A stretch of 55,826 nt of DNA from contig DAIRVC010000001.1 of assembly GCA_036803025.1 (NCBI GenBank), positions 1-55,826 on the forward strand. The letters are read 5' to 3'. Shown piece by piece: positions 8,425 through 43,210 of this stretch. Source of the DNA: Anaerolineales bacterium (lineage in GTDB: Bacteria > Chloroflexota > Anaerolineae > Anaerolineales > E44-bin32). The first letter of the stretch is position 1; each line of letters opens with the position of its first letter. The position numbers were made by a program, and so were the translations under genes. The notes under the pieces were generated by a model. That model worked only from the letters and a program-made list of their open reading frames with translations, made no database searches and was not told the DNA's origin.

Positions 8425-10722
8425 CTACGCCGAATACGGCTCGTCTTGAGCGGGCCGGCAGCCGTCCCGGCGCATGTGCCGTCGAATCTCGCGCACCAGT
8501 GTCGCGCTGGTATAGGGTTTCTGAATGAAGCCCGCCAGGCCCTTGCCGGTGAAGCGGCGCGTCGCTTCGACCTCGTTGTAGCCCGAGGACAGGATCACTC
8601 GCACGGCCGGGTTGGCGCGTCGCAGTGCGGCCAGGGTGTCGGCCCCTCCCATCCCGGGCATCGATAGATCGAGCAGCACCAGAGCGATCTCCCGCTCCTT
8701 CTCACGGTAGAGCGCCAGGCCCGACTCGCCGTCGGGGGAGGCGTAGACGTGCATGCCGGCGGCCTGGAGGATGTCGGCCACCGCCTCGCGGACCGGTGCC
8801 TCATCGTCGATCACCAGGATGGCGGCGCCGGCCAGCGGTGCCGACTCCTGCGTCGGCGCCTCGGGCTGCGCCGGTTGGAGGCCAGCCGGCACGCCGGCCG
8901 GCAGGAAGATGCGGAAGGTGGTGCCCGCGCCGGGTCGGCTGTCAACCCACAGGCCGCCGTCGTGGCCGCGCACGATACCCAACACAGCCGCCAGCCCCAG
9001 TCCGCGGCCGGTGAACTTGGTGGTGAAGAACGGGTCGAAGATGCGCGAGAGCGTCGCCGCGTCCATGCCCTCGCCGTCATCGCTCACTTCGAGCCGGACG
9101 AAGCGGCCGGGTCTGGGCGCGATGCGCGTCCGGTTGGAGGGCAGGGTGTAGTCGCTCTCGGGTTGGATATCCTCCGCGGCCGTGCTGACTTGAACCAGGC
9201 CCGGGCGCGGGCCGATGGCATCGGCGGCGTTGAGGATCAGATTCATGATCACCTGCTGCATCTGCCCCGGGTCGGCGGCGATGAGCGGCAGGGCATCGTT
9301 CAGTCTCGGCTGAAGGATCACGTTCTTCGGCACAGCCGCCTGGAACAGGTGAAGGTTTTCGTTGATCAGCGCATTGAGATCGACCGGCTGGATCTGGAAG
9401 TGCCCGCGGCCGGAGTAGGCCAGCATCTGCCGGGTCAGGTCGGCGGCCCGCTGCGAGGCCGCCACCGCCTTCTCAATCGCTGCGCGAGCGGGGTGGTCGG
9501 CAGGCAGGCTGCTGAGCGCCAGCGAGGTCTGCCCGAGCATGGCCACCAGCAGGTTGTTGAAATCGTGCGCCACACCGCCGGCCAGGATGCCCAGGCTTTC
9601 CATCTTCACCGCCTGCGACAGCGCCTCCTCCGCCCTGACTCTATAGGTGACATCTCGGATGACCCCCTCTACCGCCACCAGGTTGCCCGAAGCATCGTTG
9701 ACCGGGGAGATGCGGTGCTCGGTCCAGACCACGTGGCCGTCGCGGTGCAGCCAGCGCAGGGTGAGGGGGTCCTTCAGCGAGAACGCCGAGTCGGTGATGG
9801 TCTGCAGGGAAGGCCGGTCTTCGGGGATGATCAGGTCGAGGCCCAGCGCCGGATTGGCGTAGTGGTCTTCCGGCGTGTAGCCGATGAGCCTGGTAATCGC
9901 CGGGCTGATGTACTCGTAGGCGGGTGTGGGTACGATGCGGAAGCGGTAGACGACGTCGGGCAGATTCTCCATCAGCCGCCGGAAGCGTTCCTCGCTCTCC
10001 TGAAGGGCTTCCTTGACCTTGGCCCCCTCGACCACGCCGCCGATGATGGCGAACTCCATCACCATCAGCAGGCCCAGGAAGCCGTACTCGATCGTGTAGA
10101 CGAAGAGATACAGTCCCGTGCTGACCGCCGTGTCGCTGAGGATGCTGGTGAGGAGCAGCAGCAGAGCGATGAGAAGCGGCCGCATGCGAGCTTTGGGTCC
10201 GCGCTTGAGCGCGGTGATCGCCATCCACAGGCAGTAGACGACGCCGAACCACCCGACCACGCTCTGGAGATCGACGAGCGGTCCCGGGGTGGCTTCGTAG
10301 TAGGTCACCGTGAGGCCCAGCGCCAACGGGATGACCTTGGTGGACGGCTGGTCCACAAGCCAGGCCAGCCCACTCTGGTCGAACAGCCCGAACGCGGCCG
10401 CAAACACGCCGTAGACGGTCAGGACCCAGATCAGGCGGCGCGAGCGGTGGCCGGTGTAGTCGGCGACGAACCACAGCAGGGCGATCAAGGCCAGCGACAG
10501 AACGCTGACCTGTGCTCGCTGCCAGGGGATGCCCTCGGCCACCGAACCGACGCTGTACAGGCGGGCGCAGAACGCGTCGTACAGGCTGGCGCCCAGGCTG
10601 GTCGCGGCGAAGGTCAGGTTCTCACGCCGCTGCGGCTGGCGCAGGTAGATGACCAGGTGTGAGACGCCGACGAAGAATGTGATGCTGGCCATGATGATGG
10701 CCGGCATGGATTGGAGAATCAT
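8425..10722 (-). CDS. Hybrid sensor histidine kinase (7-TM sensor, PAS, HisKA, HATPase, receiver)
   Basis: The N-terminus has ~7 hydrophobic helices, followed by a PAS-like segment. H-box GGVAHDFNNLL, G-boxes DDGEGM / GRGLGLA and a C-terminal receiver (VIDDE...LLDLSMPGMGG) are present. Confidence 0.85.
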   Translation of the reverse strand: MILQSMPAIIMASITFFVGVSHLVIYLRQPQRRENLTFAATSLGASLYDAFCARLYSVGSVAEGIPWQRAQVSVLSLALIALLWFVADYTGHRSRRLIWVLTVYGVFAAAFGLFDQSGLAWLVDQPSTKVIPLALGLTVTYYEATPGPLVDLQSVVGWFGVVYCLWMAITALKRGPKARMRPLLIALLLLLTSILSDTAVSTGLYLFVYTIEYGFLGLLMVMEFAIIGGVVEGAKVKEALQESEERFRRLMENLPDVVYRFRIVPTPAYEYISPAITRLIGYTPEDHYANPALGLDLIIPEDRPSLQTITDSAFSLKDPLTLRWLHRDGHVVWTEHRISPVNDASGNLVAVEGVIRDVTYRVRAEEALSQAVKMESLGILAGGVAHDFNNLLVAMLGQTSLALSSLPADHPARAAIEKAVAASQRAADLTRQMLAYSGRGHFQIQPVDLNALINENLHLFQAAVPKNVILQPRLNDALPLIAADPGQMQQVIMNLILNAADAIGPRPGLVQVSTAAEDIQPESDYTLPSNRTRIAPRPGRFVRLEVSDDGEGMDAATLSRIFDPFFTTKFTGRGLGLAAVLGIVRGHDGGLWVDSRPGAGTTFRIFLPAGVPAGLQPAQPEAPTQESAPLAGAAILVIDDEAPVREAVADILQAAGMHVYASPDGESGLALYREKEREIALVLLDLSMPGMGGADTLAALRRANPAVRVILSSGYNEVEATRRFTGKGLAGFIQKPYTSATLVREIRRHMRRDGCRPAQDEPYSA

Positions 10723-15573: not shown

Positions 15574-15850
15574 CCCCATGCCCTCGGGATCTGGCTTCTC
15601 CGGTGGGAGACTTTGACGGCCTCGGTCTCCGGCGCGGATGAGGTCTGGCGAGACCTCCGCTCGATCACCAACCTCCGGTCTCTCGTTCGAGATTCTGCGA
15701 CGCTCGAACCATCTGCATTATTACAGAACCTGGGCGAAATGCAAGGTTTGCGGGCACCTTTTTTCGCCGCGGCGGGGGCCGCCCCGCGGCGCCGCGGAGC
15801 GGCCGGCGCGGCCCGGCGCATCGCGCGCGGGCCTGATTGAGGTCGGAGGC

Positions 15851-16360
15851 GGCCGCGACGGCGCGCGCGACGCTGCGCCGGCGGCAGACGGCCGAGGTGT
15901 GGCGCGCGGGGAGTGTCTTTGACGCGGCAAGTAGTGGGTTGGCGGGCTCGGCGGCACGACTCCGATGCGGGAGGCGTGCGGTTTTCGTGGCGATGAGCGG
16001 CGAGCTCGGCTTGGGCGGCGCACGCGCCGGGGGCGATGGGGGCGGTCAGCCGCGCCAGCGGACCGGCTCAGCCGCGAGAATCTGGGTCGACGGTCTCGCA
16101 GACGCGGCCGCGACGGCGCGCGCGACGCTGCGCCGGCGGCAGACGGCCGAAGGTTGGAGCGCAGGGAGTCTCTCTTACGCGGTAGGAAACGGGTTGGCGG
16201 GCTCGGCGGCACGAATTCGATGCGGGAGGCGCGCGATTCTTGTGGCGATGAGCGGCAGGCGGGGCGTGGGCGGCGCGCTCGCCGGAGGCGATGGGGACGG
16301 TCAGCCGCGCGATCGGACGGGCTTCGTCGTGAGAATCTTGACCGACGATCGCGCAGAGCC
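15851..16360. repeat. Tandem direct repeat, 2 complete 255-bp units (15851-16105, 16106-16360) with degenerate flanks
   Basis: A hand alignment is gap-free with 213/255 identities. The first 45 nt of each unit are identical. The repeat lies in the 1.07-kb gap between the ATP-grasp gene (-) and ssb (+). Confidence 0.85.
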
Positions 16361-16533
16361 GGCCGCGCGCGTGCGGCGCGCGGTCGCCGAGAGAATGAGA
16401 AGCTGCCATGCGCGCGTCGCTGCCGAGAGAAGAGGGGAGTTGCCCCGGTGCGAAGAGGTGCGCCGGGCTTTCGGCTGGGTTCCGATGGCGCGGCGGAAGT
16501 CAGTCCAGCGCAACGGCGGAGGAGCCGCCGGGT

Positions 16534-16561
16534 CTTGACAAGCCTCAGGATAGTAGTACAA
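16534..16561 (+). promoter_or_regulatory. Sigma70-type promoter for ssb (TTGACA-16 nt-TACAAT)
   Basis: Consensus -35 TTGACA at 16534-16539 and TACAAT at 16556-16561 lie ~90 nt upstream of ssb ATG 16653. Confidence 0.6.
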
Positions 16562-16652
16562 TTGTTCTAGATCAACCGGTGGGTGCACTGAACGCTGCCC
16601 CGGCCGCCCGGGCCGGATCGAGACACTGACCCCCATCGGAAAGGAGATCCCC

Positions 16653-17078
16653 ATGTTCCACAAAGTGATTCTCGTAGGCAATCTGGGGCGTGACCCGGAG
16701 ATGCGCTACACGCCCAGCGGTCAGGCGGTGACGAACCTGTCCGTCGCCACCAACCGTACGTATACCGACAGCAGCGGCAGCCCCGTCAAGGAGACCGTCT
16801 GGTTCCGTGTCTCGGTGTGGGGCAAGCAGGCCGAATCCTGCCACCAGTACCTGCGCAAGGGACGCCCGGTGTTGATCGAAGGCCGACTTGTGCCGGACGA
16901 CAACGGCAATCCGCGCATCTGGAATCGACAGGACGGCACCCCGGCGGCCTCGTTCGAAGTGAACGCCCAGACCGTCCGGTTCCTGGGCGGACGCGAAGAG
17001 GCCGGCGCTGCGGCGGCTGACGAAGGCGACCTCGGGCCGAGCGCGAGCCCGGGGACCGAAGACGAGATCCCCTTCTAA
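16653..17078 (+). CDS. ssb: Single-stranded DNA-binding protein
   Basis: The N-terminus is MFHKVILVGNLGRDPEMRYTPSGQAVTNLSVATN (OB fold). A Gly/Ala-rich linker leads to the acidic tip DEIPF. Confidence 0.95.
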   Translation: MFHKVILVGNLGRDPEMRYTPSGQAVTNLSVATNRTYTDSSGSPVKETVWFRVSVWGKQAESCHQYLRKGRPVLIEGRLVPDDNGNPRIWNRQDGTPAASFEVNAQTVRFLGGREEAGAAAADEGDLGPSASPGTEDEIPF

Positions 17079-17093
17079 GGCGCCAGCGTACAT

Positions 17094-17124
17094 CGCCCTC
17101 AGCCGGCCCGGCCGGCTGAGGGCG
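17094..17124 (+). terminator. Hairpin after ssb (possible intrinsic terminator/attenuator)
   Basis: A 13-bp stem, CGCCCTCAGCCGG / CCGGCTGAGGGCG, is followed by CATTTG. The U-tract is weak. Confidence 0.45.
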
Positions 17125-17140: not shown

Positions 17141-17479
17141 ATGCGAATGACCTCACAGCCTGGACAGCCCGCCCCCGGCGGCCGCGTTACCGTTCATCTC
17201 CCGGCCGATCTCCGGCCCCTCTACGCCAACTTCGCCGTGATCACCCACTCGATCGCCGAGTTCGTGATCGACCTGGCCCAGATCATGCCACAGGTCCCGC
17301 AGGCGCGGGTGCAGGCGCGGGTGATCATGACGCCGCTCAACGCCAAGTTGCTGCTGAGGGCGTTGGGCGAGAACATAGCCAAGTACGAGGCGCTCCACGG
17401 CACGGTCCAGGTGCCGGAAGGCTCGTCCTTGGCTGACCAGCTCTTTCGGCCCGCGCCGGGAGAGACCCCGCCGGAATAG
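17141..17479 (+). CDS. DUF3467-family protein
   Basis: LYANFAVITHSIAEFVIDLAQIMP...ARVIMTPLNAKLLLRAL is the DUF3467 pattern as I remember it. The start may be ATG 17147, which lies 7 nt after GGAG. Confidence 0.6.
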   Translation: MRMTSQPGQPAPGGRVTVHLPADLRPLYANFAVITHSIAEFVIDLAQIMPQVPQARVQARVIMTPLNAKLLLRALGENIAKYEALHGTVQVPEGSSLADQLFRPAPGETPPE

Positions 17480-17487
17480 GGAGAGAG

Positions 17488-18123
17488 ATGGACAGCCTGG
17501 ATTCCATCGCTGAACAAATCCGCCAGCACCTGGAGGAGAAGAACGCGGCGCGCGATCGGGCCCTGCAACATTCGCGCACGCTCATCCGCCATTGCGCCAA
17601 CGCCATCCGTGCCGCCCATCGCGACGAACGCCGGGCCGCCGAAGAGCATCTGACCCAGGCCCGCCAGCTGGCCGAGATGCTGCGGGGCGAGTTGGCCGGC
17701 TACCCCGATCTGTACCACGCCGGATACACCCAGGACGCGCTCAAGGAATACGCCGAGGCCAGTATTGTCTTTGCGCTGCTCGGGTCCGGCGCACTGCCCC
17801 ATCCGCAAGATCTGGGCATCGAGTACGCGGCCTACCTGTGCGGCCTGGGCGAGGCGGCTGGCGAACTGCGCCGACGTGTGCTGGACCTGCTGCGCAGCGA
17901 GGATATCCAGCAGGCCGAGTCTCTCCTCTCGGCCATGGACGACATCTACGCCCTGCTGGTTACCATCGACTATCCGGATGCCATCACCGGGAACTTGCGA
18001 AGGACGACCGACATGGTGCGCGGTGTGACCGAGCGGACCCGTGGCGACTTGACCACCAGCTTTCAGCAGCACGAACTGAGGCGGGCGCTCAAAGCGGCCG
18101 AGGACAGGCTGCCGCGCGGCTGA
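17488..18123 (+). CDS. Translin-family protein (bacterial translin/TRAX-like)
   Basis: It is all-helical. GLGEAAGELRRRVLDLLR and YPDAITGNLRRTTDMVRGVTERTRGDL resemble the translin family GEL.R and LR...D..R...E blocks. The gap to the upstream gene is 8 nt. Confidence 0.65.
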   Translation: MDSLDSIAEQIRQHLEEKNAARDRALQHSRTLIRHCANAIRAAHRDERRAAEEHLTQARQLAEMLRGELAGYPDLYHAGYTQDALKEYAEASIVFALLGSGALPHPQDLGIEYAAYLCGLGEAAGELRRRVLDLLRSEDIQQAESLLSAMDDIYALLVTIDYPDAITGNLRRTTDMVRGVTERTRGDLTTSFQQHELRRALKAAEDRLPRG

Positions 18124-18126
18124 GGC

Positions 18127-18372
18127 GTGACCCAGCGAACCCTGTCCGCCTCCGAGGTCTCGGAATTCGCCTTCTGCCGGCGGGCGTGGTGGTACGCGCG
18201 GCAGGGCGAGGTCTCCCGCTATCCGCGCCGCCTGCAGACGGGGGAGGAATGGCACCGTGCTCAAGCTCGGGGCGTTCTGGCGGCAGGCTGCCTGCGCATG
18301 GCGGGCTACGCACTCCTGGTGGCGGCGGCGGTCCTTGGCGCCGCCAGCCTCACGGCCGGCCTGCTGAGGTAA
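18127..18372 (+). CDS. Cas4/DUF83-like nuclease, N-terminal fragment with C-terminal TM helix
   Basis: SASEVSEFAFCRRAWWY matches the Cas4 N-terminal Cys motif. The ORF ends in the hydrophobic helix GYALLVAAAVLGAASLTAGLL. GTG 18127 lies 3 nt after the translin stop. Confidence 0.6.
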   Translation: MTQRTLSASEVSEFAFCRRAWWYARQGEVSRYPRRLQTGEEWHRAQARGVLAAGCLRMAGYALLVAAAVLGAASLTAGLLR

Positions 18373-18376
18373 GTCG

Positions 18377-18886
18377 GTGGGGACGCTGATCCCGCTCCTG
18401 GCGCTCCTGGGTCTTGTGCTGATCTGGCTTGCCGGCCGCGGTCAGGCGCAGTCTGGGATGCCGCGCGGTCGGGTCGTTTATCTTGACCCGGGCAGCCTGG
18501 GGCCGGCGCCCGATCCACTCTACGATGCGAAGTTGGATCTCGCCGGCCGCCCCGACTTCCTGCTCTCCACGGCTGAAGGGGTCATCCCGGTGGAGGTCAA
18601 GTCAGGTCGGGCGCCCCTGCAACCGCATGACTCGCACCTGCTGCAGTTGGCTGCCTATTGCCGGCTGGTGCAGGCGCGTGAGGACCGCCGCCCACCCCAC
18701 GGCGTGCTCAAGTACGCCGATCGCTCACTGGCGGTCCCCTTCTCGGCCAGCCTGGAGGAGCGGCTGCTGGATACCCTGGCCGAGATGCGCCGGGCTGAGG
18801 TGCGCACGCCGGACCGCTCACACGAGTCCGCCGGCCGCTGCCGGGCCTGCGGCTACCGCGAGGGCTGCGACCAGCGGCTGGGCTAG
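18377..18886 (+). CDS. Cas4/DUF83-like PD-(D/E)xK nuclease, core fragment with N-terminal TM helix
   Basis: An N-terminal helix LIPLLALLGLVLIWLAG is followed by GRPDFLL...IPVEVKSG (D...ExK), QLAAY (QhxxY) and a C-terminal CRACGYREGC (C-x2-C-x5-C). GTG 18377 lies 7 nt after GAGG. Confidence 0.7.
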   Translation: MGTLIPLLALLGLVLIWLAGRGQAQSGMPRGRVVYLDPGSLGPAPDPLYDAKLDLAGRPDFLLSTAEGVIPVEVKSGRAPLQPHDSHLLQLAAYCRLVQAREDRRPPHGVLKYADRSLAVPFSASLEERLLDTLAEMRRAEVRTPDRSHESAGRCRACGYREGCDQRLG

Positions 18887-18906: not shown

Positions 18907-18912
18907 TATAAT
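18907..18912 (+). promoter_or_regulatory. TATAAT box 7 nt upstream of nadK ATG (probable leaderless transcript)
   Basis: A perfect TATAAT at 18907-18912 precedes ATG 18920. No Shine-Dalgarno is possible in the 7-nt gap. Confidence 0.45.
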
Positions 18913-18919
18913 AGCCACG

Positions 18920-19789
18920 ATGGCTGACCCCCAACCCCCGCGACGGATCGGCGTGGCCGCGCACCCTCAGATGCCGGAAGCGATCGCGCTGGCCGGAACC
19001 ATCGCCGACTACCTCACCGCGCGCGGGCTGAGTGTCTTCCACGGCCTGCTCTACGACCAATCCCTGCGCGACACGGTTGAGCAGGGGGGTGTTGACCTGC
19101 TGGTCGTCCTGGGAGGGGACGGGACGATGCTGCGCGCCGGTCACCTGTGTGCGCCGGCCGGCGTCCCGATCCTGGGCATCAACCTGGGGCGCTTCGGCTT
19201 CCTGATCGAAGTGGATCGTGAGAACTGGCAGCCGGCGTTGACGCAGGTCCTGAGCGGCGAATTCTGGCTCGAGCGGCGAATGATGCTGCGCATCGACCTG
19301 CTGCGACGAGACCAGTCGATCGGCCAATGGGACGTCCTGAACGAGTGTGTCGTCGGACGAGGTGAGGTGGCCCGGCCGGTGCGCCTGATGGCCGAGGTCG
19401 ATGGGCGCTACGTGACGACCTACGTCGCCGACGGGCTGATCGTCGCCACGCCGACGGGCTCGACCGCCTATGCATTGGCCGCCGGCGGGCCGATCCTGCC
19501 TCCGGAGCTGCGCAATATCCTGATGATCGCCGTCGCTCCCCACCTCTCGGTGGACCGGGCGATCGTCCTGCATGACGGCTCGCGCGTGCGGGTGACCGTG
19601 CGCACCGACCACCAGGCTACCCTGAGCGCCGACGGCCAGGCGCCCGTGCGCCTGGAGGACGGTGACCTGGTCGAGGCACGGGCCGGCGAGCACACCGCCC
19701 TGTTTGTGCGCACGCGAGACGCCGGTTACTTCTACGCCAGCCTGCTTTCCAGGATGGGGCGGAATCCCACGGCCGGAGACGCACCATGA
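18920..19789 (+). CDS. nadK: NAD+ kinase
   Basis: It contains VVLGGDGTMLRA, GINLGRFGFL and ATPTGSTAYALAAGGPI motifs. Confidence 0.92.
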   Translation: MADPQPPRRIGVAAHPQMPEAIALAGTIADYLTARGLSVFHGLLYDQSLRDTVEQGGVDLLVVLGGDGTMLRAGHLCAPAGVPILGINLGRFGFLIEVDRENWQPALTQVLSGEFWLERRMMLRIDLLRRDQSIGQWDVLNECVVGRGEVARPVRLMAEVDGRYVTTYVADGLIVATPTGSTAYALAAGGPILPPELRNILMIAVAPHLSVDRAIVLHDGSRVRVTVRTDHQATLSADGQAPVRLEDGDLVEARAGEHTALFVRTRDAGYFYASLLSRMGRNPTAGDAP

Positions 19790-20316
19790 CGATCGCATCG
19801 CTGACTTGCGCCAACCACCCCGGCCGCGAGACGACGCTGCGCTGCAACCGCTGCGAGAAGCCGATCTGCAGCCAGTGCGCCGTGTTGACCCCGGTCGGCT
19901 ACCGCTGCCGGGAATGCGTGCGCGGCCAACAAGCGGTGTTCGACACTGCCCAGCGGACGGACTACCTGATCGCCGGCGCCATCTCTCTGGTGCTGGTCGG
20001 GGCGGCCACGGCCCTGTTGGGCGTCCTCGGGTTCTGGAGCCTGATCGTCTCGCCGCTGGCGGGAGGCGGCGTGGGCGAGGTCGTGCGCTGGGCGGTCCGC
20101 CGCCGGCGCAGCCGGCGCCTGCCTCTGGCGGCCTCCATCGGCGGCGCGCTCGGCGTGGCGGCGAACCTCGTTGTGCCGCTCAGCCTGCTGCCGTTCCTGG
20201 GGAAGGTCGACCTGCAAACCGTCGGAGCGCTCCTATCGACAATGCTCTGGCCGCTGGTGACCGGGGCGGTCATTGTGGGTTCGCTTTACTATCGATTGCG
20301 CGGCATCCGCCTATAG
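19786..20316 (+). CDS. B-box-type zinc-ribbon membrane protein
   Basis: The N-terminus CANHPGRETTLRCNRCEKPICSQC...YRCRECV has 8 Cys/His ligands and is followed by ~4 TM helices. The ATGA overlaps the nadK stop. Confidence 0.6.
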   Translation: MTIASLTCANHPGRETTLRCNRCEKPICSQCAVLTPVGYRCRECVRGQQAVFDTAQRTDYLIAGAISLVLVGAATALLGVLGFWSLIVSPLAGGGVGEVVRWAVRRRRSRRLPLAASIGGALGVAANLVVPLSLLPFLGKVDLQTVGALLSTMLWPLVTGAVIVGSLYYRLRGIRL

Positions 20317-20332
20317 GACGATCGACGCCCGC

Positions 20333-22072
20333 ATGCTGACCGACCTTCATATCCAGGACTTCGCCATCATCGACCGGCTGGACCTCACGTTCGGCGCCGG
20401 CTTCGTAGTGTTCACCGGCGAAACCGGTGCCGGGAAGTCCATCATCATCGACGCAGTCGAGATGCTATTGGGCGGGCGCGGCGATTCCACGCTGATCCGC
20501 ACCGACGCCCCGGCGGCGGTCATCGAGGGCACATTCCACCTGCAGGGCCGGGCGGGCCAGGAGGTGGCGGAGGTCCTCGAGCGCGAGGGCCTCCAAGATG
20601 AACCGCAGTCCGTCGTGCTGGGGAGGGAGATCCGCCGCGAAGGGCGGAGCATCTGCCGCATCAACGGTCGGACGGTCGGGCTGGCGCTGCTGCGTGAGGT
20701 CGGAGACCTGCTCGTCGATGTGCATGGTCAATCGGAACACCTCAGCCTGCTGCGCGTGCGCGAGCACATCGCTCTGCTGGACCGCTTTGCGCAGGTCGAG
20801 GACGAGCGAGAAGGATTCACTGAGCGCTACGACCGGTTGACGGCGATTCGGCGCGAGCTCGACGAATTGCGCCAGCGGGAGAAGGACGCCGCCCGGCGGA
20901 TAGAGATGCTTACCTTTCAGGTGAACGAGATCGAGTCGTCGGCGCTCAAACCGGGCGAGCTGGCCGGGCTGCAGGATGAACGCACGCGTCTGGGCAACGC
21001 CGAGCAGTTGGCGGCGCTGACCGATCAGGCGGTGGCGGCGCTGGACGAGGCGGGCGAGACGGGTGAGCCGTCGGCGCGTGACCTGCTTGGGCGGGCGGGC
21101 GCGGCGCTGCACAGCCTGGCCAAGATCGACAGCAGCCGTGAGCCCGAGAGCGCCGAGGCCCAGGCGCTGCTCGAACAGGCCGGCGAACTTGCCCGGCGGT
21201 TGCGGGTGTATCGCGAGAGCGTTGAGTTCAGCCCCCACCGGTTGGACGAGGTCGAAGAGCGCCTCGGCCTGATCCGATCGCTGGAGCGCAAGTACGGCGG
21301 AAGCATCGAGGCGGTCCTGGCGCATGCGCAGGCGGCCCGGCAGGAACTGGAGACGATCACGCATGCCGAGGAGCGCATCCGGACCCTGGAGGCCGATGAA
21401 GCCGCGGGCCTGGCCGAACTGGGGGCGCTGGGAAACCGGTTGTCGCAGGCGCGGCGCAAGGCGGGGGAGAAGTTGAGCTCGGCGATCGAGGCCGAACTGG
21501 CCGACCTGCGCATGGCGGGAGCCCGCTTCGGAATCGACCTGAACTGGGAGGACGATCCGGCCGGCGCCGCGGTTGGAGAGCGCCGCGTTGCCTTCGGTCG
21601 GGCCGGGCTGGATCGGATCGAGTTCCTGGTCGCTCCCAACCCCGGCGAGGGCCTCAAGCCGCTGGCCAAGATCGCCTCTGGAGGCGAGACCTCGCGGCTG
21701 ATGCTCGGGCTGAAGGGCGTCCTGGCTCGGGCCGACCGCACGCCGACACTGATCTTCGACGAGATCGATCAGGGCATTGGCGGCCGCGTGGGCGGCGTGG
21801 TCGGCGAGAAGCTGTGGCGGCTGGCGCGCACGCACCAGGTCCTGTGTATCACCCATTTGCCGCAGCTGGCCTCGTTCGGCGACCAGCACTTCAAGGTCGA
21901 GAAAGAAGTACGCAAGGGGCGCACCGTCACAACCGTGAAAGACCTGGCTGACGAGGCGCGCGTCCCCGAGCTGGCGCTGATGCTGGGGACGGCCAGCGAG
22001 GCGACCATGGAGAGCGCGGTCGACCTGCTGCGCGGCGCGACGGAGACCAAGATGAAGGCCTCCCGCGCCTGA
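20333..22072 (+). CDS. recN: DNA repair protein RecN
   Basis: It has MLTDLHIQDFAIIDRL..F..GF.V.TGETGAGKSIIIDA (Walker A), a long coiled-coil and a C-terminal ASGGETSRLML...IFDEID.GIGG. The nadK-recN linkage is the classic one. Confidence 0.93.
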   Translation: MLTDLHIQDFAIIDRLDLTFGAGFVVFTGETGAGKSIIIDAVEMLLGGRGDSTLIRTDAPAAVIEGTFHLQGRAGQEVAEVLEREGLQDEPQSVVLGREIRREGRSICRINGRTVGLALLREVGDLLVDVHGQSEHLSLLRVREHIALLDRFAQVEDEREGFTERYDRLTAIRRELDELRQREKDAARRIEMLTFQVNEIESSALKPGELAGLQDERTRLGNAEQLAALTDQAVAALDEAGETGEPSARDLLGRAGAALHSLAKIDSSREPESAEAQALLEQAGELARRLRVYRESVEFSPHRLDEVEERLGLIRSLERKYGGSIEAVLAHAQAARQELETITHAEERIRTLEADEAAGLAELGALGNRLSQARRKAGEKLSSAIEAELADLRMAGARFGIDLNWEDDPAGAAVGERRVAFGRAGLDRIEFLVAPNPGEGLKPLAKIASGGETSRLMLGLKGVLARADRTPTLIFDEIDQGIGGRVGGVVGEKLWRLARTHQVLCITHLPQLASFGDQHFKVEKEVRKGRTVTTVKDLADEARVPELALMLGTASEATMESAVDLLRGATETKMKASRA

Positions 22073-42989: not shown

Positions 42990-43009
42990 CCGCTTACAAC
43001 CGAACCGAT

Positions 43010-43158
43010 AGGGCCGAGGTGGCCGTTTGCCCGGATGCGACGGCCACCCAGGGGAAGCCGGTCACTGCCGCACAACGCGGCCGAAGTCCGGCGCTGTCCC
43101 GCAACTGTAGGGGCGTGGTCAGGTGACCCGCCCGAGCCAGGATACCCGCCTCGGCCCG
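43010..43158 (+). promoter_or_regulatory. Cobalamin (B12) riboswitch
   Basis: P1 is GGCCGAGG (43012-19) / CCTCGGCC (43149-56) and P2 is GGTGGCCG/CGGCCACC. The conserved core reads AGGGGAAGCCGGT ... GAAGTCCGG ... GCTGTCCCGCAACTGTA, and the B12 box reads GAGCCAGGATACCCGCC. Confidence 0.85.
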
Positions 43159-43210
43159 CGACGCGAACACCCTTCGCGGAAAGGAGGTGGCGCATGTCCT
43201 ATCCAACGTG

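Follow-up and report, generated by a model that had tools for sequence, protein, structure and literature searches.

Homomeric C3PO from archaea, known from Archaeoglobus fulgidus (AfTRAX, PDB 3ZC0/3ZC1) and Nanoarchaeum equitans (NeC3PO, PDB 5JR9/5JRC), is encoded by a single gene of ~200 aa and performs two-metal cleavage inside a closed octameric barrel, acting on short single-stranded RNA (ssRNA) and less well on DNA; NeC3PO favours ssRNA over single-stranded DNA (ssDNA) at least 10-fold (PMC5100593). The translin superfamily, to which these enzymes belong, has been known in Chloroflexi since 2012 (Gupta et al., as cited in PMC5100593 and PMC5424206). Cas4-family nucleases likewise occur outside CRISPR systems as solo-Cas4 (COG1468), including a monophyletic group in many Chloroflexi (Hudaiberdiev et al. 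2017, PMC5704561) and the Methanosarcina mazei Solo-Cas4 (PMC12501428). Here we present a computational analysis of a 55,826-nt stretch of an Anaerolineales bacterium (GenBank assembly GCA_036803025.1, contig DAIRVC010000001.1, positions 1 to 55,826, forward strand; hereafter the window), in which a compact cluster downstream of ssb encodes a DUF3467 protein, a TRAX-like protein of the translin superfamily, and what by their motifs are the two halves of a Cas4-family nuclease. To our knowledge, neither prokaryotic TRAX/C3PO homologues nor solo-Cas4 nucleases have a known physiological role.

We propose, at a probability of roughly 0.55, that this arrangement is a conserved Anaerolineae operon encoding a single-stranded nucleic-acid processing module, expressed from the ssb promoter by read-through of an attenuating hairpin. 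The gene order in the proposed operon would be ssb, DUF3467, TRAX-like nuclease, and two-gene Cas4-family nuclease. Four open reading frames (ORFs) on the + strand tile positions 17141-18886 with spacers of 8, 3, and 4 nt:

16653-17078, + strand: ssb, canonical single-strand DNA-binding protein with the C-terminal tip ...DEIPF (PF00436, E 8.9e-31; TIGR00621, 121 bits).
17141-17479, + strand: ORF1, DUF3467 protein, 112 aa, probable start at ATG 17147.
17488-18123, + strand: ORF2, translin-superfamily protein of 211 aa, a probable TRAX-like nuclease resembling the homomeric C3PO of archaea.
18127-18372, + strand: ORF3, predicted Cas4 N-terminal half, 81 aa, with C17, an RAWW motif, and H43, then transmembrane helix 1 (from Cas4 profile matches, invariant residues, hydropathy, and the positive-inside rule).
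18377-18886, + strand: ORF4, predicted Cas4 C-terminal half, 169 aa, with transmembrane helix 2, GRPD(F/Y), EVK, QLAAY, RSH, and CX2CX5C.

An initial annotation of the window, made from the letters alone, had described four same-strand genes with 8-, 3-, and 4-nt gaps, flanked by ssb and by nadK, a B-box gene, and recN, and coordinates and profile matches agree with that layout. The tight coupling that it noted is likewise seen in the 3-8 nt spacers and the stop-start geometry described below.

Membership of ORF2 in the translin superfamily is, at the level of sequence, unambiguous. It matches AfTRAX (3zc1, E 5.7e-23) and N. equitans NEQ131 (5jr9, E 1.5e-13) over nearly its full length and scores 270.7 bits (E 7e-81) against the NCBIfam PRK14562 family; its score on the Pfam Translin model lies below threshold (19.4 vs a gathering score of 25.9 bits). 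The PRK14562 models bear the misleading name 'haloacid dehalogenase superfamily', and NCBI records name the translin-like protein likewise; automatic annotation labels the genes of the cluster 'haloacid dehalogenase', 'CRISPR-associated Cas4', and 'hypothetical'. ORF2 residues E87, E90, E122, and E126 align to NeC3PO E82, E85, D117, and E121, which coordinate the two catalytic cations and whose mutants lose or weaken cleavage (PMC5100593). All of 30 diverse homologues have E90, at least 90% have E87 and E126, and 29 have Asp or Glu at position 122. ORF2 is thus a TRAX-like and probably active nuclease rather than a passive translin.

The window and every related locus carry only one translin-superfamily gene, with no separate translin subunit. 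This single-gene state matches the archaeal homomeric type and not the eukaryotic heteromeric C3PO. With the archaeal enzymes ORF2 shares the E/E/(D or E)/E catalytic residues, and a metal-dependent action within a barrel is probably alike; it differs in its bacterial host, in the glutamate that replaces NeC3PO D117, and in its neighbours, which are ssb, DUF3467, and Cas4 rather than genes for SepRS, EndoV, and riboflavin kinase. With eukaryotic C3PO, a hetero-octamer of translin and TRAX, it shares the fold family and the catalytic residues of the TRAX subunit, but neither the separate translin subunit nor the context of RNA interference (RNAi) and Argonaute. The initial annotation had assigned the gene to a translin family that forms C3PO with TRAX and had called such proteins rare in bacteria. 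The superfamily assignment stands, on the profiles and the AfTRAX match, while a translin-plus-TRAX pair gives way to a single TRAX-like gene. Rarity does not hold for Chloroflexi, where the family was published in 2012 and where we count 7991 matches and 467 species genomes.

Downstream of the translin-like gene, ORF3 covers positions 3-45 of the Cas4 profile, with the first Fe-S cysteine and the motif I histidine, and ORF4 covers positions 61-178 of TIGR00372, with motifs II and III, QxxxY, and CX2CX5C. On its own, ORF4 reaches 54.5 bits on TIGR00372, under the cut-off of 65, whereas the joined ORF3 and ORF4 reach 68.4; ORF4 also scores 35 bits on Pfam Cas_Cas4 (PF01930; gathering score 22.7). 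Across 24 species at 40-72% identity, C17 and H43 in the N half and D141, E154, K156, Q171, Y175, C236, C239, and C245 in the C half are invariant. By these motifs, ORF3 and ORF4 are the halves of one Cas4-family enzyme, divided so that the N half holds the first Fe-S cysteine and the motif I histidine, and the C half holds the D/ExK site, QxxxY, and three cysteines. The four cysteines expected of a predicted 4Fe-4S or 2Fe-2S cluster are present (C17 and CX2CX5C). An AlphaFold2 (AF2) model of the joined protein has a confident core, with a predicted local distance difference test (pLDDT) score above 90 at residues 120-220; its alignment has depth for the C half only, and the N half is of low confidence at a pLDDT of about 60. 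The top match of this model in a Foldseek search of the PDB is the type I-C Cas4 8d3l_J (E 4.9e-6), and its other best fold matches are a Cas4-Cas1 fusion, MGME1, SSO0001, ACE1, Dna2, and AdnA. A split Cas4-like nuclease, as the initial annotation had read it, is supported by both the joined score and the structural match.

The split itself is a constant feature. N and C halves are separate ORFs of ~81 and ~169 aa in all 56 loci from which both could be extracted, the modal spacer being 3 nt (36/56). At 46 of 58 junctions the two ORFs lie in the same frame with one stop between them; in the other 12, the window included, they are out of frame. The stop is TGA in 48/58, with TAA and TAG also used, and the usual junction reads Shine-Dalgarno-like GAGG/GGA, TGA, 3 nt, then ATG or GTG. 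In its geometry, this is termination-reinitiation coupling with a Shine-Dalgarno-like sequence that overlaps the stop, not recoding. Neither the 80 loci nor the best 120 database matches to the C half included an unsplit Cas4 with a transmembrane insertion, and those 120 are all 160-198 aa long. With its catalytic and Fe-S residues unchanged among sequences of 40-72% identity, the split Cas4 is under purifying selection, and on these comparisons the split is genuine and ancient. Public gene calls shorten or miss the 81-aa N half; in the closest genome (locus L004, 6745-6885) it is called at 46 aa.

The break falls between two hydrophobic helices not found in ordinary Cas4, so that each half carries one transmembrane helix. 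Both helices exceed 1.6 on the Kyte-Doolittle scale in every species, and their best 19-residue windows average 2.4, with a minimum of 1.68. The mean number of Lys plus Arg residues is 2.0 before and 0.35 after helix 1, and 0.07 before and 2.65 after helix 2. Because the positive-inside rule is so clearly followed, we infer a transmembrane hairpin cut in its outer loop, which would place both catalytic parts in the cytoplasm. A usual Cas4 is a single soluble polypeptide of about 160-220 aa; the enzyme here comprises two ORFs with a transmembrane pair at the break.

Compared with known solo-Cas4 proteins, the cluster Cas4 has the same RecB motifs I-III, QxxxY, and four cysteines, and its fold matches type I-C Cas4, SSO0001, and Pcal_0546. 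Like them it lies apart from cas genes and CRISPR arrays: the window contains no CRISPR-like repeat array, and no cas genes are among the gene calls of related loci, which is why we regard it as a solo-Cas4. It differs from them in its division into two ORFs at a point between motifs I and II, in the transmembrane helix on each half, in the distribution of Fe-S ligands and active site over two polypeptides, and in its constant position beside a TRAX-like gene. The survey that described the Chloroflexi group mentions no split, no membrane anchor, and no translin (PMC5704561). ACE1, the cyanobacterial Argonaute-associated Cas4-family enzyme (PDB 9IAB/9IAC; PMC12094033), is a parallel in that a Cas4-family protein likewise accompanies a second nucleic-acid enzyme outside CRISPR. 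The partner here is TRAX-like rather than Argonaute, the similarity is weak (E 5e-3), and evidence for guide generation is lacking for the cluster. The end-resection nucleases AddB, AdnA/AdnB, Dna2, and MGME1, which are Fe-S PD-(D/E)XK enzymes, share the nuclease fold and, except for MGME1, the iron-staple, a resemblance that makes processing of ssDNA ends plausible. The cluster enzyme has no helicase or translocase domain, is membrane-anchored, and is much smaller than these.

To examine the neighbourhood, we collected 80 species-level genomes with a close relative of the translin-like gene (57-76% identity), using a profile built from a 4-sequence alignment. All are Anaerolineae/Chloroflexota, with the exception of a contig that was assigned to a Methanosarcinales bin but has the same bacterial block. 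Neighbours were counted only in loci with enough flanking sequence. In 62/72 loci the gene immediately upstream of the translin-like gene is DUF3467, and in 56/64 ssb lies within 1.6 kb upstream; downstream come the Cas4 pair (55/77), nadK (58/72), and recN (50/61). Dozens of species-level genomes share the order of the block, with translin identities as low as about 57%, and the block was also recovered starting from Cas4 homologues, on contigs of 5.4 Mb and 313 kb. Upstream of ssb the adjoining gene is variable, falling into 23 clusters among 50 loci; because this gene is not conserved, the block has a defined upstream edge. The gene arrangement is more than chance. The initial annotation would have been contradicted by profile searches that did not back translin or DUF3467, or, as a fortuitous juxtaposition, by an order kept in no relative; the assignments hold and the order is kept, as the counts for DUF3467 and Cas4 attest. 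The exceptional contig (L034, JAIWHF010000033.1), labelled 'Methanosarcinales archaeon', has the whole ssb-to-recN block of the bacterial type, its translin-like protein being 64% identical, and is probably mis-binned Anaerolineae.

The trio formed by the translin-like gene and the N and C halves of Cas4 also persists in unrelated contexts (loci L071, L073, L079, and L068); in the early-branching L073, its neighbours encode a LysM protein, a beta-helix protein, and a radical SAM enzyme. This adjacency amid changed surroundings is the best evidence that the translin-Cas4 link exceeds inherited order, and all split-Cas4 homologues examined adjoin a translin-like gene. In a neighbour-joining tree of the translin proteins, the Cas4 pair has been lost at least 7 times. 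One such locus, L014, retains the last ~38 residues of the C half (RSH...CX2CX5C) between the translin-like gene and nadK, at 8546-8758, as a deletion scar. In a Cas4-less clade, a PDDEXK_3 gene (GxxExxY; PF13366, E 8e-36) is found between DUF3467 and the translin-like gene (L045, 7429-7863; L066, 6109-6561; L041, 147-614), and may be a replacement partner or a mere insertion.

Signals around the cluster point to a transcription unit that begins at ssb. The relevant elements and the genes that follow the cluster are:

16535-16562, + strand: sigma-70-like promoter before ssb (TTGACA, 16 nt, TACAAT; 11/12 matches, where shuffles average 0.3).
17094-17124, + strand: hairpin 3' of ssb with a perfect 14-bp stem (surrounding 70 nt, -40.7 kcal/mol, z = -3.25).
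18907-18912, + strand: exact TATAAT, 7 nt before the nadK ATG.
18920-19789, + strand: nadK, neighbouring unit.
19786-20316, + strand: B-box zinc-finger and transmembrane protein (zf-B_box, 27 bits vs a gathering score of 24.1).
About 20333-22072, + strand: recN (TIGR00634, 533 bits).

The ssb promoter is the only consensus promoter on the + strand between 16300 and 22400. The hairpin after ssb, already seen in the initial annotation and confirmed here, occupies a spacer of about 72 nt before DUF3467; a stem of at least 7 bp is found in this spacer in 60/61 loci, with widely different stem sequences, and a TATAAT-like box in just 4/61. The hairpin is probably a partial terminator or attenuator that sets downstream expression below that of ssb, and transcription apparently continues from ssb into the four genes, giving a unit that extends from ssb to Cas4. 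At the downstream end of this unit, 52/63 loci, Cas4-less ones included, have a TATAAT-like box 6-8 nt ahead of the nadK start. The position of the box just before the start codon suggests a separate leaderless nadK-Bbox-recN transcript and marks the downstream boundary of the cluster. The genes from nadK to recN (18920-22072) thus probably represent conserved synteny on a transcript of their own, and adjacency of nadK and recN is common in bacteria generally. From this operon structure, the suggested functional partner is ssb rather than recN: the initial annotation had drawn on both as functional clues, and the clue from ssb is upheld by read-through while that from recN is weakened by the box before nadK.

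ORF1 is a DUF3467 protein (PF11950, 68.2 bits vs a gathering score of 25, E 6.6e-19). In an alignment of its homologues, M3 is invariant and the proteins are 110 aa long, for which reason the second ATG, at 17147, is the probable start. An AF2 model from 52 homologues (pLDDT 82) comprises three strands and a long helix; the conserved SLADQLFRP motif sits on a further, short helix at the C terminus. No significant structural neighbour was found for this model in the PDB with Foldseek (best E 0.17), and a sequence search of the PDB found nothing. RuvC, PC4/Sub1, and Pur-alpha were set aside as relatives, their weak Foldseek matches reflecting merely a three-strand-plus-helix motif. In the literature searched, DUF3467 occurs in a single, unrelated paper.

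These observations lead us to a plausible scheme for the module. The two Cas4 halves would pair through the transmembrane hairpin at the inner membrane face and, judging from their motifs, would reconstitute an active site shared between them, along with a 4Fe-4S cluster that bridges two subunits. SSB would cover or present the single-stranded substrate. The membrane-tethered Cas4 would then trim or cut DNA ends and 5' single-stranded tails, after the manner of characterised Cas4 enzymes, and the TRAX barrel would degrade the short single-stranded products or RNA fragments, with RNA preferred to DNA by analogy with NeC3PO. DUF3467 may act as an adaptor or regulator, possibly via its conserved C-terminal motif. 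The role of such a module would most likely lie in housekeeping DNA repair, recombination, or nucleic-acid turnover, not in CRISPR adaptation. More tentatively, and with clearly less confidence than in the operon itself, we suggest that the C3PO-like barrel and the two-subunit membrane Cas4 could constitute one unrecognised machine, with DUF3467 as adaptor and SSB as chaperone, that processes DNA ends or single-stranded nucleic acids at the cytoplasmic membrane.

Several points weigh against the module as proposed. All support for it is computational; the low confidence of the N half in the AF2 model means that reassembly of the Cas4 halves is deduced from motifs; and a membrane anchor is unexpected on a repair nuclease. 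At least 7 losses make the Cas4 pair dispensable. Conservation is confined to one class, so that shared ancestry inflates the counts. Distant relatives of the translin-like protein carry unrelated neighbours: at or below about 50% identity these are a cyclase and a polysaccharide deacetylase, or an H+-PPase, on metagenomic contigs of which some may come from other Chloroflexota. In archaea, the neighbours SepRS and EndoV point by analogy to RNA/tRNA metabolism over DNA repair. Such a TRAX-SepRS operon is already published (PMC5424206), and two archaeal loci inspected here (L090, 3673-6812; L091, 5001-6256) agree with it, TRAX adjoining genes for a SepRS-like class II synthetase, Endonuclease V, and a CTP-dependent riboflavin kinase. 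Bacteroidales DUF3467 proteins, of the same family with 40-52% identity across the core, are encoded by genes that stand alone, either next to rpsL-rpsG-fusA or downstream of rpoC, and, unlike the one in the window, have neither translin-like nor Cas4 neighbours. The initial annotation had asked whether the gene set co-occurs across Chloroflexota and other phyla: its order is kept in dozens of Anaerolineae genomes, with no association beyond that class. The association is a lineage-specific invention of Anaerolineae.

The Bacteroidales genes (L092, 5983-6291; L093, 5998-6312) lie at the edge of the rpoBC/str ribosomal region, in records that are filed as plasmids in PLSDB yet carry core ribosomal operons and are probably pieces of chromosome. 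In two Aggregatilineales-like loci (L083, 8806-12090; L084, 8719-11931), the translin-like gene comes after a divergent ssb and is followed by the gene for a ~1,090-aa protein with TIR, Ser/Thr kinase, and SH3 domains.

Alternatively, the cluster would be inherited synteny without a common pathway, DUF3467 and the TRAX-like protein serving RNA metabolism (for instance the clearance of tRNA or rRNA processing fragments) and the split Cas4 being an independent accessory nuclease that is their neighbour by chance in one lineage. Such an explanation would make sense of the SepRS-like and Endonuclease V neighbours of archaeal TRAX (PMC5424206), of the at least 10-fold ssRNA preference of NeC3PO (PMC5100593), of the placement of Bacteroidales DUF3467 by ribosomal and RNA polymerase genes, of the repeated loss of Cas4 while ssb-DUF3467-translin stayed, and of a linkage limited to one class. 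It sits poorly with the 3-8 nt spacers and stop-start geometry, which favour co-translation, with the continued adjacency of the translin-like gene and the Cas4 pair after complete turnover of neighbours (L071 and L073), and with the presence of a translin-like gene beside each split-Cas4 homologue examined. We judge it unlikely, while regarding it as the most serious competitor of the processing module.

A role in defence is a good deal less probable. By analogy with the pairing of a prokaryotic Argonaute (pAgo) and the Cas4-family enzyme ACE1, the cluster would be an anti-phage or anti-plasmid module in which a membrane-tethered Cas4-type nuclease hits the ends of entering DNA and the TRAX barrel destroys the fragments or makes guides. 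Cas4-family enzymes do have immune functions, and the fold matches include ACE1 structures (PMC12094033); a membrane anchor would put the nuclease at the site of foreign-DNA entry; presence and absence of the Cas4 pair vary as in accessory defence genes; and another PD-(D/E)XK gene, PDDEXK_3, adjoins the translin-like gene in the Cas4-less clade. However, the DUF3467, TRAX-like, and B-box proteins have no match in PADLOC-DB 2.0, and Cas4 has only generic Cas4/DruK matches there. The translin-like protein has no relative among 50,697 phage records and none in IMG/VR; DUF3467 has a single partial match among the phage records (MT836236.1, 42% identity over 59% of the query, E 2e-11) and no relative in IMG/VR. 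The locus is fixed beside ssb with no mobile-element or defence-island neighbours, and no Argonaute or cas gene is nearby. Of the end-processing, repair, or defence role floated in the initial annotation, repair and end processing would be the likelier functions, and no CRISPR, phage, or defence signal was found.

That the split is unreal (a sequencing frameshift, a decaying pseudogene, or one protein made by stop read-through or recoding) is very improbable: the 46/58 in-frame junctions across a single stop, TGA in 48/58, could suggest read-through or selenocysteine, but TAA and TAG junctions occur, 12/58 are out of frame with the window among them, the start codon is fixed 3 nt after the stop with TGA embedded in Shine-Dalgarno-like GAGGTGA, the translin-like gene of the window also terminates in TGA, the invariance of catalytic and Fe-S residues at 40-72% identity reflects purifying selection and not decay, and the one true remnant (L014) looks very different. 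Frameshift or pseudogene was accordingly rejected as the cause of the split, which is present in 56/56 species with catalytic residues invariant, and selenocysteine or read-through at an in-frame TGA was rejected as the main explanation in view of the TAA, TAG, and out-of-frame junctions and the fixed-distance start.

Outside the cluster, further features of the window were recorded. Upstream of the ssb promoter, in sequence that is apparently non-coding, there is a 255-bp tandem duplication at 15849-16367 (2.0 copies, 84% identical), and a cobalamin riboswitch (RF00174, 53.9 bits vs a gathering score of 31.5) lies at 43000-43167 on the + strand. The recN start is probably ATG 20333, the alignment to the RecN model beginning at residue 21. 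A gene for a Clp-type AAA+ chaperone lies 3' of recN in 33/46 related loci (L009 and 32 others); in the window, that position is taken by an F420H2-dependent quinone reductase-like gene and an Rce1-like (CPBP) gene, assigned via the closest relative, L004.

A literature search found no paper linking DUF3467, translin, and Cas4, in keeping with the statement of the initial annotation that no described bacterial pathway combines these parts. The parts themselves are known; what is new is the split architecture of Cas4 and a conserved partnership for a bacterial C3PO homologue. An obligate split of an Fe-S PD-(D/E)XK nuclease at an inserted transmembrane hairpin is an unusual protein architecture, and the split Cas4 neatly illustrates how translational coupling keeps a divided gene functional. 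With TRAX/C3PO and solo-Cas4 genetically coupled in a large and widespread bacterial class, a concrete and testable system becomes available for both. If the tentative view of a single C3PO-Cas4 machine is true, it would represent a new pathway of repair, DNA uptake, or immunity.

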